Below, in pieces: positions 1,021-9,721 of a DNA stretch of 32,257 nucleotides. The translations under genes were made by a program, and so were the position numbers. This DNA comes from a virus (lineage: Duplodnaviria; Heunggongvirae; Uroviricota; Caudoviricetes): the IMG/VR virus record IMGVR_UViG_2541047777_000015; one strand, written 5' to 3'. Below the pieces are notes generated by a model that worked only from the letters and a program-made list of their open reading frames with translations, had not been told where the DNA came from and searched no databases. How positions within the stretch are numbered: position 1 is the stretch's first letter; each line of letters begins with the position of its first letter.

Positions 1021-1343
1021 TTTTTTGCCCGTCCATATTCAACGGCTTCTTTGAGGAGTTCATTTTCCATCGTTTTCTTGCCGAGCAGGCGCTGGAGTTC
1101 TTTAATCTGCTTCATGGCGGCAGCAAGTTCAGAGGCAGGAACAACCTGTTCTCCGGCGGCGACAGCAGTAAGACTTCCTTCCTGGTATTGCTTACGCCAG
1201 AGAAATAACTGGCTGGCTGCTACACCATGTTGCCGGGCAACGAGGGAGACCGTCATCCCCGGTTCAAAGCTCTGCTGAACAATTGCGATCTTTTCCTGTG
1301 TGGTACGCCGTCTGCGTTTCTCCGGCCCTAAGACATCAATCAT
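978..1343 (-). CDS. insC: IS2 OrfA (InsC), HTH DNA-binding transposase component
   Basis: 121-aa [29 protein letters not shown]... The track ORF (978-1388) is trimmed to the ATG at 1343. Confidence 0.85.
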
Positions 1344-1434
1344 CTGTTCTCCAATGACTAGTCTAAAAACTAGTATTAAGACTATCACTTATTTAAGTGA
1401 TATTGGTTGTCTGGAGATTCAGGGGGCCAGTCTA

Positions 1435-1439
1435 GGCTG
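1435..1439. repeat. IS2 target-site duplication (GGCTG), right copy
   Basis: Second copy of the 5-mer, immediately outside the IS2 end at 1434. Confidence 0.8.
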
Positions 1440-1530
1440 TTACGCCCAGTGTGAAGAAAAGAAGGCTAAGTATGGTAGAATTTCCATACGCACAGACCTT
1501 GTTATCCGACTATACAGCCTGGAAGGCACT

Positions 1531-2319
1531 ATGACAAATCTACAACTGGAAGAAAGATTTAGGGCGCTTGAGAAAGATTACGATGCGCTCATTTCCACAA
1601 AATATACTGCGCAGAACGTTCTCACTCACACTATGGAAACCTATGTTGATTCTGGTAAATATAAAAACTGGATCGCCAGAGTGAAAAAGTTAATAGAGGA
1701 CAGCTACGGAAAAGAGTCTGATTATTACAATGACTTCAATACTGTAAACAGCAGGTGGTCTTCTAATTACAATACACTGATCAAAAGTTATAAACCGTTG
1801 TTTGATGCGGCGAGAGATGATCTTGCGCACTCTGCTGTCAGTACTAATACTCCTCAAGAAGGTTCGCCGCTGAGCCTCGTACTTAATATTCTTAACAGGT
1901 TTCCGACCTTTGTTCGCCAGTTAAAGAGGCGGTACAACGGCCGTGCGCCGCTTGAAGTTAATGATGAGTATGACGTACAGGATTTGATTTATGCACTGCT
2001 GACGCTTCATTTTAATGATATTAGGGCGGAAGAGTATACCCCCAGCTTTGCGGGCGCGGCCTCAAGACAGGACTTTCTTTTGAAAAAAGAGAAAATTGTG
2101 ATAGAGGTGAAGAAAACCCGTGAATCTCTGGGAGCGGGTAAAGTTGGTGGAGAGTTGCTTATTGATATGGCGCGCTACCGCGCTCACCAAGACTGCGATA
2201 CGTTGATCTTGTTTGTATATGACCCGGATTGCTACATAAATAATCCTTTGGGCGTGAAAACCGATCTGGAATCTAAAGACGCGGAAGGAAAAGTGAAGGT
2301 TGTTATTGCGCAGTTCTGA
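1531..2319 (+). CDS. hypothetical protein with PD-(D/E)XK-like C-terminal region (putative nuclease); second gene of an IS2-split operon
   Basis: ATG at 1531 preceded by GGAAGG; 262 aa. The N-terminal part looks helical (LEERFRALEKDYDAL); the C-terminal part has acidic-then-ExK spacing (EYDVQDLIYALL ... EKIVIEVKK) suggestive of a restriction-endonuclease-like fold. The start overlaps the stop of the upstream frame (ATGA). The track start at 1300 lies inside IS2 and is rejected. Family not recognised. Confidence 0.7.
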   Translation: MTNLQLEERFRALEKDYDALISTKYTAQNVLTHTMETYVDSGKYKNWIARVKKLIEDSYGKESDYYNDFNTVNSRWSSNYNTLIKSYKPLFDAARDDLAHSAVSTNTPQEGSPLSLVLNILNRFPTFVRQLKRRYNGRAPLEVNDEYDVQDLIYALLTLHFNDIRAEEYTPSFAGAASRQDFLLKKEKIVIEVKKTRESLGAGKVGGELLIDMARYRAHQDCDTLILFVYDPDCYINNPLGVKTDLESKDAEGKVKVVIAQF

Positions 2320-2352
2320 CACGCTTAAGTGTCACCTTACAGGATTAGGTTT

Positions 2353-2400
2353 GCGGCCGTGCCAGCAGGACGAGCATGAAAAAGGCCGCTGGCACGGCCG
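2353..2400. terminator. stem-loop between convergent genes (putative terminator)
   Basis: 13-bp perfect inverted repeat CGGCCGTGCCAGC / GCTGGCACGGCCG with an 18-21 nt loop, followed on the plus strand by a T-rich stretch (GATTTGTCATCTTTG). Lies between the stop of 1531-2319 (+) and the stop of 2407-2700 (-). Confidence 0.5.
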
Positions 2401-2406
2401 GATTTG

Positions 2407-2700
2407 TCATCTTTGCCAGGTCAAATCAAAATCTACGTGAAAATCCGCAGGCTTAAGCTCGCAACTGCCACCACGCCCAATTAACGACGTTATGTTTACA
2501 ACGTTTGAACCTGTTGAGATGGCAAGTTGAGTGTCATCTGTAAACGTGATGATTAGCATTTCAGTCTGATGAACCTGTACTCCAGTTTTCTGAAAACCAA
2601 TCTGGACAGATTTCACCGTTTTCCCAACCATTTCACGGGCTTGATTGATAGAGTAATTAGCTTCAACTTGTAGGTCATTCCTGAACTTGGGTAGTGTCAT
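2407..2700 (-). CDS. hypothetical protein (97 aa)
   Basis: ATG at 2700 with a strong RBS (AAGAGGA, 7 nt spacing). Predicted beta-rich small protein; no family recognised. Confidence 0.7.
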   Translation of the reverse strand: MTLPKFRNDLQVEANYSINQAREMVGKTVKSVQIGFQKTGVQVHQTEMLIITFTDDTQLAISTGSNVVNITSLIGRGGSCELKPADFHVDFDLTWQR

Positions 2701-2910
2701 TTTACATCCTCTTTAGTGAAGTTTTCGCTATTTAAATCAGCAGCATTCCTTTTAAATCACTGGCATGTCAGCAGTGGATAGTCTGAGTGTAACGTCCAGT
2801 GAGGGGAATAAATATTGGTCAGACTTTGCACAAAAGAGCCAACTATCGCGGGCTCTCTCTCATCATGTGCGAAAATTGACCACAATATGAAATCCAGTTC
2901 CATTCCGAAA

Positions 2911-3746
<836 letters not shown>

Positions 3747-3809
3747 CTTATAATCCCTACTAGTTAGCATTATGATTTCCAGAGTGAGGAATATAAAAAT
3801 CTCTGTTTC

Positions 3810-3891
3810 TGGCACATAACAGCCCTTAAGATCGTAGCTCGCCATCATGGGGTGTCGGGGGGCGGAGGTTCAAATCCTCTCGTGCCGACCA
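3810..3891 (+). tRNA. tRNA-Pro-like partial/degenerate copy (3' half canonical), probable att-site copy, not a functional tRNA
   Basis: 3845-3891 reads TCATGGGGTGTCGGGGGGCGGAGGTTCAAATCCTCTCGTGCCGACCA: anticodon-loop-like AUGGGGU, T-arm GGAGG/TTCAAAT/CCTCT, acceptor 3' strand and CCA, matching my recollection of E. coli tRNA-Pro(GGG). The 5' part (3810-3844) only loosely resembles a tRNA 5' half (no D-arm, extra bases), so no cloverleaf forms. Confidence 0.55.
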
Positions 3892-3904
3892 AAAATCCCT
3901 TAAG

Positions 3905-3931
3905 AACCAGCCTATTATGGCTGGTTTTTTT
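3905..3931 (+). terminator. rho-independent terminator
   Basis: AACCAGCC-TATTAT-GGCTGGTT stem-loop followed by a run of 7 T, directly downstream of the tRNA-like 3' end. Confidence 0.75.
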
Positions 3932-4071
3932 ATGATTGTTTTTTATGCGGAGAAATACCGGGGAATAATTGGGGTAAAACACCTTTAGGCTATTCACTTA
4001 GCCTACCACCATCAAAATCTTTCCGAATGTATCCATCTCTTTTTTCTTATGCAGCTAAAACGAAGTCTTGA

Positions 4072-4119
4072 TACTGTTTATTTACACAGATAAGAATAAT
4101 ACTGTCTACAAACGCAGTA
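4072..4119 (+). promoter_or_regulatory. tandem LexA (SOS) boxes in the dinI-like promoter region
   Basis: TACTGTTTATTTACACAGAT (4072-4091) and TACTGTCTACAAACGCAGTA (4100-4119) both fit CTGT-N8-ACAG / CTG-N10-CAG. A TTGATA -35-like hexamer lies at 4067-4072. Confidence 0.65.
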
Positions 4120-4132
4120 CAAAAGAAGTGTT

Positions 4133-4311
4133 ATGCGTATTGAGATCTCCATAGCCAAAGACAAAATGACCAAATGCCAAACGGCGCTGTGGACGCGTTA
4201 AAGGAAGAATTAACCCAACACATTGGCAAGCGTTATGACGATGTGGAGATGATCGTAAAAGCCACCAGCAACGATAGTTTTTCAGTTAGACATACTGCAG
4301 ATAAAGATTGA
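4133..4311 (+). pseudogene. dinI-family (DNA-damage-inducible protein I-like) gene, frameshifted and C-terminally short
   Basis: ATG 4133 gives [22 protein letters not shown] (stop 4199-4201). A second frame from 4174 gives [45 protein letters not shown] (stop 4309-4311). Joined, they align with DinI (MRIEVTIAKTSPLPAGAIDALAGELSRR...), implying a 1-nt indel near 4165-4175. Confidence 0.6.
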
Positions 4312-4735
4312 GCTAAAACTTTCGTTCAGGAAACTCTGAATGATACCTGAGAGTCTACTGAAGAGTTGTTTGTTCACTAGTTAGCACGTAGGAAATCATT
4401 CAATACTCGCACTATCGGAAGTTCACCAGCCAGTCGTAGCACGTCCTTGCAAACGACGTGCCTACGGTTTCAATCACCTCTCACCATCAATTCTATCAAT
4501 AATAATTAAACAGCGCCTAGACAAAATAAATAACAACAAGTCAACAACCTCGACAGGATGCCGATGGGATGATGAAGAGATAAGAAAGAATAACCAGTAA
4601 AGCCCTAAAACGTCAGCGTTCAGACGCGTTTTTTACTTAATCGGTAACAAATACGTTGTATCATAGCAAAATAAAATGATTGTTCTAAATCAGATTAACT
4701 CCTCACTTTTGTACAATGTCGCTTACAGGTATACC

Positions 4736-6625
4736 ATGAAATCCGAGACGCTAACTGTCCAACAACTTTTTCAAGACCGCCGACAATACTGTGTTCCATT
4801 CTATCAACGTGCCTATGTATGGACTCAGCAAGACCAGTGGTCAGCTCTACTGGAGGATATCCTAGAGAAAGTACAATCCCGGCTCTCGGGTACAAAACCA
4901 ACTCCCCATTTCCTTGGTGCGGTTGTACTGGAACCTCAATCAAAAAAAGGATTATTAGGTGTAGATTCCATACATATTATTGATGGTCAGCAACGATTGA
5001 CCACTCTTCAATATGTTCTGGCATCCATCCGATTAGCATTACGTGCTACGGATCTTTCCAGCTTAGAGGCTCTCATTTCGCCTTGCCTGAAAAACTCAAA
5101 CGAAGACACAATGCGAAATAAAGAAGTAGAACGCTTCAAACTGTGGCCAACTTTTCGGGATCAAACTCATTTTATTCAAAGTTTTAATGTTGAAAATATT
5201 GACGATCTCCGGGACGTATTCTCTGATAGTTTCACGCAGCATGGTACGTTGCGTAAGCATTTTAATCACCCGCCATCACTAGAAGCATTATGTTTTTTTA
5301 CTGAAGCCTTTATAAAATGGATTAAAATAGAAAACCACTCACCACAAGAAAATGCTGTAGCTCTAATTGAGGCTGTCTTAACAGATCTGAAACTGGCAAG
5401 CATATTTCTCGAAGCTGAAGATGATGCCCAAATAATTTTTGAAACATTAAATGGGCGAGGGGCGGAACTTCATGCTACGGATCTTATTCGCAACTATATC
5501 TTTATGTGCGCTGAGCATGAAAATATTAATGCTATTGAATTATATGAAAATGAGTGGAAGAGCTTTGAAGATAAATACTGGTCGGAAAAACAACGCCGTG
5601 GACGTATTAATAAACCACGCATGGAGTGGCTAGTACATGCGACATTGCAATCAGAAAGGCAACGTGAAATTGATCTGTCTCGCCTTTACAATGAGTATCG
5701 TGATTATGTAAGTAAGGACTTGTCTTCACAACGAGCAGATCTGCAAGTAAAGCGCCTCAAACAATATGCATCACAATATAAAGAATTGGTTGATGGTTTT
5801 GGCACAACCCCCATCTCACACTTTGGATATCGCATCGCAGACTATGATGTGACGACACTTTATCCGCTTGCTTTGTTCATTTCGATAGCTAACATCGCTG
5901 ATGATGAGAAAGCAGCCATGTATAATGATCTTGTCTCCTACGTAGTACGAAGAGCCGTATGTGGCCTGACGCCAAAGAATTACAACAATGTATTTATGAA
6001 TGTATTGCGGCACTTGGCTAAAACGGAAATTTCCAGTGTTGAGTTACGTAATATCCTCAATAACTTAAATGGCGAAGCCTCACGTTGGCCTGGTGACTCA
6101 GAATTTCTCAACGCTTGCATCAATGCTCCACTTTATCCTGGCAGGCTCGACGCACCGAAAATGCGCTCAATGTTAACGGAACTTGAAAGAGAACTTTGTC
6201 GCCAAGTAAAGACAGAAAAGCCTGATGTTCCAAATCTTTCTAATCTCGATATCGATCATCTTATGCCTCAAAGTTGGTATTCCTGTTGGCCTCTCGAAAA
6301 TGGTCGTATGGTGACAAATTCAGATGCTACGGTATTGAACCAAATTGTTCTGTCTGGAACCGATCTTACCCCTGAACAGCTACTGGTAAGGAAACGGCAA
6401 CAAGCGATATCTACTTTGGGAAATCTAACTTTGCTTAACCTTAGCGTAAACCGTTCTGTTCAGAATGCTGTATTTCTGAAAAAACGTGATGCTCTCATCG
6501 TCCACACCAATCTACGACTGAACATTCCACTTATAGTTAAGGATAAATGGGATGAGGATGAAATCCTGGAGCGGGGTAAAAAGTTGGGGGAAATTGCATT
6601 GAAAGTATGGCCAAAACACGATTAA
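4736..6625 (+). CDS. GmrSD-family type IV (modification-dependent) restriction endonuclease, DUF262 (ParB-like NTPase) + DUF1524 (His-Me finger)
   Basis: 629 aa. N-terminal DUF262 motifs (YCVPFYQRAYVW; IIFETLNGRGAELHATDLIRNYIF) and C-terminal DUF1524-like motifs (DIDHLMPQSW; LGNLTLLNLSVNRS). ATG at 4736 with AGG 7 nt upstream; the track ORF starts at 4676. Confidence 0.85.
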   Translation: MKSETLTVQQLFQDRRQYCVPFYQRAYVWTQQDQWSALLEDILEKVQSRLSGTKPTPHFLGAVVLEPQSKKGLLGVDSIHIIDGQQRLTTLQYVLASIRLALRATDLSSLEALISPCLKNSNEDTMRNKEVERFKLWPTFRDQTHFIQSFNVENIDDLRDVFSDSFTQHGTLRKHFNHPPSLEALCFFTEAFIKWIKIENHSPQENAVALIEAVLTDLKLASIFLEAEDDAQIIFETLNGRGAELHATDLIRNYIFMCAEHENINAIELYENEWKSFEDKYWSEKQRRGRINKPRMEWLVHATLQSERQREIDLSRLYNEYRDYVSKDLSSQRADLQVKRLKQYASQYKELVDGFGTTPISHFGYRIADYDVTTLYPLALFISIANIADDEKAAMYNDLVSYVVRRAVCGLTPKNYNNVFMNVLRHLAKTEISSVELRNILNNLNGEASRWPGDSEFLNACINAPLYPGRLDAPKMRSMLTELERELCRQVKTEKPDVPNLSNLDIDHLMPQSWYSCWPLENGRMVTNSDATVLNQIVLSGTDLTPEQLLVRKRQQAISTLGNLTLLNLSVNRSVQNAVFLKKRDALIVHTNLRLNIPLIVKDKWDEDEILERGKKLGEIALKVWPKHD

Positions 6626-6649: not shown

Positions 6650-6669
6650 GGCCTTACATTAGTAAGGCC
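6650..6669. terminator. stem-loop downstream of the GmrSD-like gene (possible terminator)
   Basis: GGCCTTAC-ATTA-GTAAGGCC, 8-bp stem. No clean T-run on the plus strand; A/T-rich flank on the minus strand. Confidence 0.4.
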
Positions 6670-6720
6670 GCTACTCACTATTAAATACTTTAATTTGCAT
6701 CAAGAACAGCAGTGTCAGCC

Positions 6721-6849
6721 CTAGGTCTCGGACTTTGTACCGCTTATCTTGTCTTCAAAAATCAGCTCGCATCCTGCACAGTTCAGCGCATTACGTTGTA
6801 GATCTGTGTTCTGGTCATTTGTTGACACACGTACATAGCCAATAAGCAT
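6721..6849 (-). pseudogene. pin: Pin/Gin/Hin-family DNA invertase (serine recombinase), N-terminal 42-codon remnant
   Basis: Minus-strand ATG at 6849 encodes MLIGYVRVSTNDQNTDLQRNALNCAGCELIFEDKISGTKSET*, matching the invertase N-terminus including the catalytic-serine motif YVRVSTNDQ. The frame stops at 6721-6723; the remaining ~140 codons are absent. Confidence 0.8.
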
Positions 6850-6875: not shown

Positions 6876-7370
6876 ATGATGCCATTTGCTCGTTATTTCT
6901 GCATTTTCATAAACGTTGGTTTGGGAGAAGCCTCAAAATTGAATGTGGGTATGCCGGAAAAACGGCCCCCTGATATGCCGCTCTCAACCGGTATGAGATG
7001 CAATGGAGAGTCTTTTTTTGCTGAAGAAGACGGGCAAATGGCTAAGGCTTATACGGTAAATATATGGCGTGCAGTGGGTGTTGAGGTTATTCCTGGTTGT
7101 GATTATGGGCGCACCGGTTATTCTAGGTGTTCTGTTCCCTCAACAACATTGCCCTCTGTAGTTCCTAATAATGTGCTGGTAGTTATCCCTTCGGGATCTA
7201 CAAGCGCTTATGGTGCTAAATTTACCGATACTGCAGGTTTTGAAGCGACGAGGGGTAATATTATTGCCAGCAACGGGAGGGATCATTCCATTTTGTTCAA
7301 AGTCGCCATAACCCTGATTGCAGCCCGTCCTCGCGACATTAGAGTCAACTCTATCGTGATTGGAGGGTAA
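6876..7370 (+). CDS. alternative tail-fibre variable C-terminal segment (S'v-like) inside the invertible segment
   Basis: The ORF begins in the left crossover repeat; residues VGLGEASKLNVG repeat the [12 protein letters not shown] encoded at the end of the constant tail-fibre ORF. It can only be fused to the constant part after inversion. Confidence 0.55.
   Translation: MMPFARYFCIFINVGLGEASKLNVGMPEKRPPDMPLSTGMRCNGESFFAEEDGQMAKAYTVNIWRAVGVEVIPGCDYGRTGYSRCSVPSTTLPSVVPNNVLVVIPSGSTSAYGAKFTDTAGFEATRGNIIASNGRDHSILFKVAITLIAARPRDIRVNSIVIGG
6904..6929. repeat. hix/gix-like inversion crossover site (left, inverted relative to 8831-8856)
   Basis: Reverse complement TTCTCCCAAACC-AA-CGTTTATGAAAA resembles the 26-bp hix consensus TTATCAAAAACC-AA-GGTTTTTGATAA. 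A ~45-bp inverted repeat with 8805-8848 shares a 16-bp identical core TTGGTTTGGGAGAAGC. It lies ~55 bp upstream of the pin remnant. Confidence 0.6.
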
Positions 7371-8830
7371 TGGATAAAGCAATATTCTATAGACGCGTTA
7401 GTACAACAATTGAACTGCATGTTTTGTTTTATAAATATGAGGATGAAGGTCCGCATCATAATGACATTTTAAAAAAATATCTTGCAGTAGGTGAGCATTT
7501 CCCGGGACTTTCCCGACTAGGTACAGAAGGTAGCCATGACGCTGCTGGTGGTCTATTTCGGTTTATGTCTCTACCTTCATCGGAAGAGGATCAGGTGTAT
7601 ACGGGTGAAATCGTCAAAATATCCTAGGTGTGAGAATTAAAAACATACACCACACCCGGTCAGTACCCTGACAATACTGCCACTGTTCGCCCATTAGCCG
7701 CATAAGATGAGTAAGATGGTTCGAGGCGGGATTCCCAGGCTGCACCGGAGCTTATCGATGCAGTCTACGCGGCAGAAGTAGAATGGCATTCACCTCTGGC
7801 TGCTGCAGTCAGTTGCAATCCTGCGCTTTGGCTGTATTTATTGCCCGGACGGAATCAGTTTAATGCAGAACAAAGTTGAGCTGGGTTTTTTCTGGATGAC
7901 ATAGACGCGGTGCCGGCAACAAATTCCGGCGAATCAGACGGAGGCAACCGACTTGAGCTGCAGGAAGTGTCGGACGTTCAATTTCTGGCGCGTATACTGC
8001 GGCGATCTGTTCTGCCGCAGCAACGGACTCCAACCTCTCATCATACTACTTATCGTACTCCCTTATCGGAGGAACAGTGGTAGCATTGTCAGGGCACTGA
8101 CCGGTTGCTATGAAGGGATTGACTTCTGAAGTCTAAGAGATATAGACGATTTCAGCGGGCTGGTCTTCCACATATTTCCAAGAAGTTGGAGTCTCAGACC
8201 GTAATGTCGGATATCAACCGTCATGTCCAATTGGTTTCCCTAGTGAGTGCAGTGCAGGAAATCGATCACATATGTCTATAGTATTTCTAGTAATAGCAAC
8301 AGAATGCGTTGTCTCACCATCATAGTCATGAACGATATCATCCACTTCCTTTCTAGTAACTACGGGTGTAATGAATACTGCTTTCTTCATTACCCTGCAC
8401 TCATTAACTAGTTGACGGCGATGTCGCAAGGAAAGGTAGCGTCCGGTTTAATGGCCACTGTACACACCACGGACTTGTTATCCCTGTTAGCAACGATAGT
8501 GTAAACCGCCGTCGCTCAAATACCTGCTAAATTACTGGATACACCACCATAAGCGGTTGAAGTTCCCAGGGGGATAACTAGCACCACATAAATAGTAACT
8601 ACAAATGGCACTTTTGTTGAGGCCACAGAACGCCTTTTATAAACTGCGCGCCCATCATCCCAATCAGTAATTCACTTCCCAGCCAATTGACGCAATATAC
8701 TTGCCGTAACCACCTTTGTCAGTTCCGGGTAAGGTTCAGGAATAACAGAAGTACCGTTGCAATTCGGACCCCCCGTGGAAGACGTGTCTGAAGGTCATTG
8801 AACACGGATACCAACATTTAATTTTGCCGC
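6930..8830. other. invertible tail-fibre segment (G/P-segment-like), largely decayed
   Basis: Bounded by the inverted hix/gix-like sites. Contains the S'v-like ORF and a small ORF on the plus strand; the minus-strand region 7630-8795 has only short, stop-interrupted frames. Confidence 0.55.
7370..7627 (+). CDS. hypothetical protein (85 aa), possibly a tail-fibre assembly chaperone remnant
   Basis: ATG overlaps the stop of the S'v-like ORF (TAATG), which is the usual position of a tail-fibre assembly gene. No family recognised. Confidence 0.4.
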   Translation: MDKAIFYRRVSTTIELHVLFYKYEDEGPHHNDILKKYLAVGEHFPGLSRLGTEGSHDAAGGLFRFMSLPSSEEDQVYTGEIVKIS

Positions 8831-9133
8831 TTCTCCCAAACCAAGGTTTTCGAGAGCCGTTTTCACCGTGCCGTCCGATTTGATATCGCTAAACGGATTC
8901 TTGCGGCTTAACAGCAGCGCACGAAGCGCGGTAAGCAGCTGGTCGTGCCGCGCCTTCTCCAGACTGGCACCGGATGCCTCCACCACGCTGCAGAGTTCTT
9001 CCTGCAACATGTCAAAGTAGTCATCATCCAGATCGGTGGCAGGCGTGCCTGTCTGGGGGTTACCACGGGTAAAACCGTTCTTACCCGCGCCGAACTTATC
9101 CTTCTGCGCGGTTTTCGTGTCTATACGATGCAT
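8795..9133 (-). CDS. tail-fibre protein, constant N-terminal part (Sc-like), ending 13 codons inside the invertible segment
   Basis: 112-aa ORF with RBS GGAG 8 nt upstream. It follows the DUF2313 and baseplate genes in Mu/e14 order. The C-terminal [15 protein letters not shown] is encoded by the crossover repeat, with a stop immediately after. Confidence 0.65.
8831..8856. repeat. hix/gix-like inversion crossover site (right)
   Basis: TTCTCCCAAACC-AA-GGTTTTCGAGAG, 17/24 half-site matches to the hix consensus. Lies inside the 3' end of the constant tail-fibre ORF. Confidence 0.6.
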
Positions 9134-9136
9134 GGA

Positions 9137-9721
9137 TTACTCCGGATATTTAAAAATTACGTAGGTATGCGAAGGGCAGAGTTTGTTAAGCACACATTCG
9201 ACGACGGTGTCGCCCCAGATACGCAGCGCGGAATCACAGGGATCGCCACATGTCATCCAGGTGCTGTTGGTGGCGGCTGGCATGTTGACCTGCCAGTAAT
9301 ACCGCCATTCCGGCGCATTCACCGCGTCAGTACAGGCCGATGAGCAGGTGAACGTGCTTTTGTCGTATCGCGTGATGGTGGCGTCTGGTCTGCCCAGGGC
9401 AGCAAGCTGTGCAAGGTAAAAATCCTCATTGATGCCGCCCGCCAGGTTAACCTTCGCATCCAGTCGTTGCTGACGCTGGCGAAGGGTCTGTGTTCCTGCG
9501 GGAATACATTCATCCGGCAGGCCGCACAGACGCTCCCAGCGATTTATCAGTTCGGTGGTGGTGCGCGGATCCAGCTCCCGCATCAGGGCATCCGCACGCT
9601 GATGAACGCGGGTTAATGACTGTGCCGCACCGGCAATCGCCGGATCGCTGGCTGACCACGCCGGACCGGGCGGCAGCAGTGCCGACAACAGACGGATGTA
9701 ATCATCGTTTGTCACGCCCAT
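9137..9721 (-). CDS. phage tail protein, DUF2313 (Mu gp48 / e14 YmfQ-like)
   Basis: 194 aa, located between the baseplate J-like gene and the tail fibre as in Mu-type tail modules. Confidence 0.7.

Follow-up and report, generated by a model that had tools for sequence, protein, structure and literature searches.

The prophage end and its cargo genes

The window, by which we mean the whole 32,257-nucleotide stretch of viral DNA analysed here, matches the ssrA-adjacent prophage of Escherichia coli UTI89 (NC_007946.1, about 2.90-2.93 Mb), whose baseplate and tail are of the Mu type and whose fibre region resembles that of e14. Apart from the block 6932-8829 and an IS2 copy, the two differ at 12 single bases in about 29 kb. 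The source of the window is an E. coli near UTI89 (ST95 type), and the window shows that end of its e14-like prophage which adjoins ssrA. The UTI89 annotation from the fibre through the lysis and replication genes holds no pseudogenes, and the prophage in that strain appears structurally complete. The features of the region discussed here are collected in Table 1.

Nine of the 12 single-base differences are bunched within 1.2 kb (30102-31297, the DUF968 and KilA-N genes), which suggests a small recombination patch. The IS2 copy (105-1434), absent from UTI89 and flanked by a 5-bp GGCTG target duplication, carries InsC- and InsD-type ORFs at 978-1388 and 115-1020, both on the minus strand; its insertion separates ssrA from the prophage cargo genes. 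These cargo genes form a defence-type run (1300-6625) between ssrA and the remnant of a pin invertase gene.

The cargo gene closest to the remnant encodes both GmrSD_N (DUF262) and GmrSD_C (DUF1524) in one protein, as in GmrSD-type type IV restriction enzymes, and enzyme activity is predicted. It is convergent to the pin stub, so placed that its 3' end and a short spacer lie downstream of the stub.

Table 1. Positions of the features of the pin stub, the fibre switch and the neighbouring cargo genes in the window
Feature	Position	Strand	Remarks
DpnII/MboI restriction-endonuclease-domain protein	1300-2319	+	Pfam E=8.3e-49
LEM-3-like GIY-YIG nuclease	2911-3717	-	cargo gene
DinI-like pseudogene	around 4130-4350		UTI89 annotation
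GmrSD-type (DUF262/DUF1524) type IV restriction gene	4676-6625	+	Pfam GmrSD_N E=2.9e-33, GmrSD_C E=3.8e-20
Terminator-like hairpin	6650-6669		in the spacer between stub and GmrSD 3' end; read from sequence
pin' stub	6721-6849	-	PinE-type serine invertase codons 1-41, one foreign codon and stop; pseudogene
Candidate Fis-dependent recombinational enhancer	6765-6828	-	inside stub; from homology and spacing
Distal Fis-like core, GTGCAGGATGCGAGC	6765-6779		about 144 bp from left site centre
Proximal Fis-like core, TGTCAACAAATGACC	6813-6827		centre about 96 bp from left site centre
Left 26-bp crossover site, TTCTCCCAAACCAACGTTTATGAAAA	6904-6929	-	centre 6916/6917, central dinucleotide AA
Alternative fibre C-terminus	6879-7370	+	UTI89 content mapped to window
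Chaperone of alternative C-terminus	7373-7816	+	UTI89 content mapped to window
Invertible-segment body	6932-8829		per-base 50:50 mosaic of both orientations; consensus artefact
tfaE-like chaperone	7788-8390	-	UTI89 content mapped to window
Expressed fibre C-terminus	from 8390	-	UTI89 content mapped to window
Right 26-bp crossover site, TTCTCCCAAACCAAGGTTTTCGAGAG	8831-8856	+	centre 8843/8844, central dinucleotide AA
Constant N-terminal tail-fibre part (StfP-like)	8844-9133	-	ORF only 112 aa in mosaic

The pin stub and its spread

Read on the minus strand from 6849 down to 6721, the stub encodes MLIGYVRVSTNDQNTDLQRNALNCAGCELIFEDKISGTKSET followed by a stop, 42 codons and the stop in all. Its first 41 residues are identical to residues 1-41 of the e14 PinE of K-12 (41/41; PinE has 184 aa), the DNA being nearly identical as well, and 36 of the 41 are shared with a Gin-like invertase of UTI89. 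In DNA alignments the homology to intact pinE genes stops at about window 6716-6728, just past codon 41. The catalytic Ser9, in the motif YVRVS, is retained; all residues beyond 41, and with them the remaining catalytic domain and the C-terminal HTH_7 domain, are lost. Pfam Resolvase (PF00239) matches the stub with E=2.9e-9 over model positions 2-48 of 145 only, whereas the intact PinE and Gin-like proteins cover positions 2-144, as expected of a resolvase-type catalytic domain of about 135 aa with its Ser9/10 nucleophile, and both have HTH_7. No HTH_7 was found in the stub or anywhere else in the window, and tblastn found no other invertase-like sequence in the 32 kb. The RefSeq entry for the identical UTI89 sequence is a pseudogene, "recombinase family protein; incomplete; missing C-terminus". 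The stub is incapable of encoding an enzyme, which leaves the switch beside it with no cis-encoded recombinase. On these points the original prediction, of a 42-codon remnant that keeps the catalytic-serine motif, has lost the remaining catalytic domain and the DNA-binding domain and provides no enzyme in cis, is borne out.

The 3' three quarters of pin were replaced through acquisition of the GmrSD cassette. Of 5426 complete E. coli genomes, 283, the type strain among them, have the same junction between the GmrSD gene and the stub at 95-100% identity, with various fibre alleles beside it and in a variety of prophage settings, some of which show obvious decay. This number of carriers and the variety of their fibre alleles and contexts show that the truncation is old and widespread, not peculiar to one isolate. 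In some carriers the reading frame of the stub is itself broken.

Several individual carriers deserve mention. Strain 51243816-SK1A (locus L008, 3928-7631) has the same junction with a frameshifted stub, a crossover-site core that reads AATTG instead of AAACC, and a fibre segment broken up by IS629 and a group II intron. The fibre gene is truncated in TUM17668, where the GmrSD-stub module adjoins retron Ec67, while in YF-1 the module adjoins Qin-like genes. In E. coli SC422 (NZ_LR778143.1; locus L003, 2886-3122) pinE was truncated independently, at codon 79; the cargo genes behind it are unrelated and an apparently intact invertible fibre segment lies alongside, which makes this another route by which such a switch can be orphaned.

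Crossover sites and design of the switch

Next to the stub lie two crossover sites with TTCTCCCAAACC half-sites, which form a 20-nt inverted repeat with a 95% match in UTI89 and are typical 26-bp Hin-family sites. The right site falls within the tail-fibre gene, where its constant part meets the variable part. The 1.93-kb segment between the sites encodes two alternative C-termini of the fibre and a separate chaperone for each. In the UTI89 sequence, where all four segment ORFs and both sites are intact, either orientation joins the constant part (from 9133) to a different C-terminus to give a fibre of 247 aa, followed by a chaperone of 200 or 147 aa according to the orientation. By its gene content and its sites the locus is a classical tail-fibre host-range switch of the Pin/Gin type, built like the e14 P segment and the Mu G segment.

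A blended consensus between the crossover sites

The segment is far less straightforward in the window itself. Compared with UTI89, the block 6932-8829 has 673 mismatches in 1898 positions (35%) and zero indels, with all 12 types of substitution about equally frequent (transitions 33%), and it aligns at about 65% both to the UTI89 segment and to the reverse complement of that segment, although the UTI89 segment shows no similarity to its own reverse complement. When each position x was mirrored to 15760-x, every base in 6880-8880 was accounted for: 740 positions agree only with the forward reference (flanks included), 673 only with the inverted one, 588 with both and 0 with neither. Between the sites the 1359 informative positions divide 686 : 673 between the UTI89 orientation and the inverted one, both are evenly represented in each 200-bp bin, and a runs test gave 688 runs against 680 expected (z=0.41). 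Since the two parent sequences are unrelated, such a mixture cannot be biological: the block is a blend of two unrelated sequences in register and corresponds to no real DNA molecule. Only a consensus step that was given both orientations as input would produce this coin-flip pattern.

Other readings of the block were rejected: natural divergence by the lack of indels in 1898 bp at 65% identity, the even substitution types and the 0 unexplained positions; a simple inversion relative to UTI89 by the reverse-strand match, which is likewise only 65%; a quasi-palindromic segment by the lack of any reverse self-match in the UTI89 segment; and hypermutation or A-directed diversification by the uniform substitution spectrum.

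Because the block is a blend, the fibre ORF of the window ends after 112 aa, at 8795, and no intact chaperone gene is found in the block. A chimeric ORF of 164 aa at 6876-7370 survives only because the frame is open in both parents and ends at a stop that they share. No record of this chimeric ORF exists in the protein collection, and among the complete E. coli genomes of RefSeq none contains the mosaic region. Genes, proteins or variants called from 6932-8829 are fictitious. The original prediction spoke of an adjacent invertible segment; such a segment does exist, but its unreadable state in the window had been missed. Recognition of 6932-8829 as a blended consensus is the most useful outcome of this work and its main practical value, and the question whether each base is either the forward or the mirrored reference base provides a simple test for blend artefacts at other invertible loci.

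The mosaic proves that both orientations were present in the input, and gives neither their ratio nor proof of a single clonal culture. It looks more like algorithmic tie-breaking between two inputs than like read sampling, and it could be purely computational, the result of merged assemblies or strains or of some other post-assembly manipulation, and so be uninformative about inversion in the source strain. The choice of base at each position does behave like independent fair coin flips, the lack of indels and of third bases makes the block cleaner than the usual voting among noisy reads, and the absence of the chimeric ORF from the protein collection and of the sequence from RefSeq complete genomes is what such a product would show. 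However, no algorithm could have made the blend from one orientation alone, the flanking sequence is identical on either side and the blend ends at the crossover sites, as for one strain with a flipping segment, and the closest relative, UTI89, gives independent evidence of flipping (below). A mosaic of this uninformative kind is therefore considered unlikely.

Inversion of the segment

The orientation of the segment in other genomes was surveyed with a 3.8-kb query that starts in the GmrSD gene, takes in the stub and the segment and ends in the constant fibre part, together with a version in which the segment was flipped. Complete genomes have the UTI89 orientation in 79 cases and the inverted one, found among others in IHE3034 and APEC O1, in 25, most being 100% identical over the 3.8 kb. 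Prophage inversions at 0.9 and 2.9 Mb of UTI89, only one of which adjoined a phage invertase, have been confirmed by PCR, wild-type cells included (Russell et al. 2019, PMC6458436). The "2.9 Mb" primers of that study map to the GmrSD gene (window 6112-6131), to the inside of the segment (the UTI89 equivalent of 7977-7996) and to ymfQ (9675-9694). From this placement on and around the segment it follows that the published assay reads exactly the switch of the window; it showed both orientations in wild-type UTI89. The finished genomes in two orientations, the mosaic of the window and the published PCR agree that the segment inverts, and the switch is not locked in the UTI89 lineage.

A small discrepancy was seen in one of the primers: as printed, CGCTTGCAATCAATGCTCCAC (PMC6458436 Table S2), it has one extra A compared with UTI89 and the window, CGCTTGCATCAATGCTCCAC (6112-6131).

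A probable source of the invertase

With pin lost, inversion would call for an enzyme from elsewhere in the genome. The search for other Hin-family invertases, which found none in the 32-kb window, gave an intact Gin-like enzyme in UTI89, WP_000905061.1 (UTI89_RS04425), of 199 aa with Resolvase and HTH_7 domains. It is encoded in a P2-like prophage (918,974-919,573, 0.92 Mb), next to gix-like sites of its own and to the PCR-proven 0.9-Mb inversion, whose primers were also mapped. The gene is identical in NU14 and IHE3034, the latter having the segment in the inverted orientation. UTI89, with both orientations and this second intact invertase, is not the case that the original prediction had named as contradicting it, namely both orientations with no invertase acting in trans, and its conditional form, a switch locked unless an invertase of the Hin/Gin/Pin family acts in trans, is sound.

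The Gin-like enzyme of the P2-like prophage is likely to be the trans-acting enzyme for the segment. Classical experiments show Gin, Cin, Hin and Pin to be interchangeable, and by analogy with that complementation we assume that the Gin-like enzyme would be active across systems on this segment too. The central dinucleotides differ, AA at the sites of the window versus GA at the P2-like prophage's own sites, a difference that should not matter for inversion within one segment. We infer both the identity of the catalyst and the presence of an invertase in the window's source strain, of whose genome the 32 kb are the visible part.

To relate orientation to the presence of an invertase, the GmrSD gene was used as an anchor together with the C-terminal halves of the Gin-like gene and of pinE, and the matching places per chromosome were counted in 57 distinct top records of carriers (chromosomes only). 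A second invertase-like place was present in 7 of the 10 genomes with an inverted segment (none in the other 3) and in 16 of the 47 that were not inverted (none in 31). The association is weak (odds ratio 4.5, Fisher two-sided p=0.07), ignores phylogeny and uses place counts as a proxy; it leans towards a need for a second invertase in flipping, with the switch effectively locked where there is none. Carriers with no second chromosomal invertase nearly all have one orientation, 31 non-inverted to 3 inverted, and the locked switch of the original prediction fits them; for the UTI89 lineage it is contradicted by the mosaic, the 79 and 25 genomes and the PCR.

A rival reading would have the switch dead, the segment having been frozen in one orientation after the loss of pin and now decaying as a fossil. 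The cis enzyme is certainly gone, the 31 to 3 ratio points the same way, and carriers such as SK1A (mutated core, frameshifted stub, IS629 and group II intron) and TUM17668 (truncated fibre gene) are indeed decayed. Against this stand the four intact segment ORFs and both intact sites of UTI89, the 79 and 25 genomes that differ in orientation at 100% identity, the blending of both orientations in the window and the PCR, which found both orientations in wild-type UTI89 and already contradicts a dead switch for strains of that type; a fossil locus is thus quite improbable.

RecA-dependent homologous recombination between short inverted repeats, with no invertase involved, has very little to recommend it: the inverted repeat is only 20 nt with a 95% match, less than the length that RecA needs for efficient exchange, the repeats have the form of canonical 26-bp Hin-family sites with a common AA core, and genomes with the inverted orientation tend to have an invertase, even though three of them have no detectable second chromosomal one and an inversion between the identical genes asnW and asnV, presumably by homologous recombination, was also found in UTI89 (PMC6458436).

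We regard it as probable, all in all, that the locus, which lost pin to the GmrSD cassette and has been blended in the window, is an orphan switch that is flipped in trans and keeps an enhancer within the stub. Beyond codon 41, pin has given way to a defence cassette that ends in the GmrSD gene, and the prophage has no invertase of its own. An intact invertase of the same family from elsewhere in the genome, the candidate in UTI89 being the Gin-like enzyme of the P2-like prophage at 0.92 Mb, would then bind both crossover sites and invert the segment in trans. The orphan locus would have kept all its cis elements, the two sites and the enhancer, and would lack only the diffusible protein. Both orientations were present in the underlying data, and the consensus step mixed them base by base.

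A candidate enhancer in the stub

Hin-family invertases need, in addition to their two sites, a Fis-bound enhancer in cis, which lies in the 5' coding part of the invertase gene some 100 bp from one site, and the stub would cover the place that this enhancer occupies in genes of the family. Two Fis-like 15-mers lie in the stub with their centres 48 bp apart, and the stretch of 96-145 bp from the centre of the left site falls inside it; we take them to be putative Fis sites from homology and spacing, and partly by comparison with the hin enhancer sequence. The two cores do not vary among four stubs and pinE, and hardly differ in the Gin-like gene. The four stubs compared come from different backgrounds, and one is frameshifted while another has a missense change in the catalytic motif, so that the coding function would seem to have decayed and the cores not, which in so few sequences of about 95% identity is only a hint.

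An enhancer retained within the stub may be the reason that flipping persists at the orphan locus. The truncation in SC422, at codon 79, also spares the 5' end of pinE. A more general possibility, which we put forward tentatively and with some doubt, is that the pin stub is kept because it carries the Fis enhancer, and that switches whose invertase is lost to incoming defence cassettes survive as orphans provided that about 130 bp at the 5' end are left, relying on the invertases of co-resident prophages. If this were true, the host-range switching of one prophage would be under the control of another, and independent truncations that spare the 5' end, such as those at codon 41 here and at codon 79 in SC422, would be its signature.

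Comparison with known systems

The closest known system is the P segment and PinE of e14 in K-12, which has crossover sites of the same type, an invertase identical to the stub over its first 41 residues, and the same order of genes: ymfQ, an stfP-like constant fibre part, an invertible segment of the tfaP/tfaE/stfE type, pin, and a type IV restriction gene at the end of the prophage. Unlike in e14, pin in the window is cut after codon 41 and inversion must come in trans; the cargo gene is GmrSD rather than McrA, the prophage lies at ssrA rather than at icd, and in UTI89 it appears structurally complete.

The G segment of Mu and the C segment of P1 likewise carry alternative tail-fibre C-termini with their chaperones. 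They are flipped by Gin and Cin, Fis- and enhancer-dependent serine invertases whose enhancer lies within the 5' end of the invertase gene, and the Gin-like enzyme of the UTI89 P2-like prophage belongs to this group. In Mu and P1, however, the enzyme gene stands beside its own segment, whereas the segment of the window appears to depend on the enzyme of another prophage. The H segment of Salmonella is less similar: Hin flips a flagellin promoter rather than tail-fibre coding sequence, and hin lies inside the invertible segment.

A serine invertase that serves sites away from its own gene is also known in Mpi of Bacteroides fragilis, which is named as a family in PMC9881135, a paper that makes no mention of orphan switches. 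Mpi is dedicated to the global control of many promoter switches, whereas the trans action proposed for the window looks like an accident, in which a deletion made one prophage dependent on another.

Much of what is described here concerns an ordinary kind of system and was already known: the pseudogene had been annotated and the UTI89 inversion published, and trans complementation among Hin-family invertases is textbook knowledge. Only the connection between these facts, and the idea of a retained enhancer, are new. The locus is probably a natural case of a phase-variable switch with no recombinase of its own that still operates through the enzyme of another prophage. A missing adjacent invertase should not be taken to mean that a switch is locked, and co-resident prophages may depend on each other for variation in host range.

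The P2-like prophage of UTI89 that carries the Gin-like gene (0.91 Mb; locus L006, 27094-33946) shows an unusual arrangement of its own. The tail block from sheath to gpU lies on the opposite strand to gpD/ogr, the fibre genes and the baseplate genes, and a partial ORF comes after the gpD-like gene, which is short. This is possibly an inversion of about 6 kb next to the Gin-like gene, perhaps a secondary event of the invertase.
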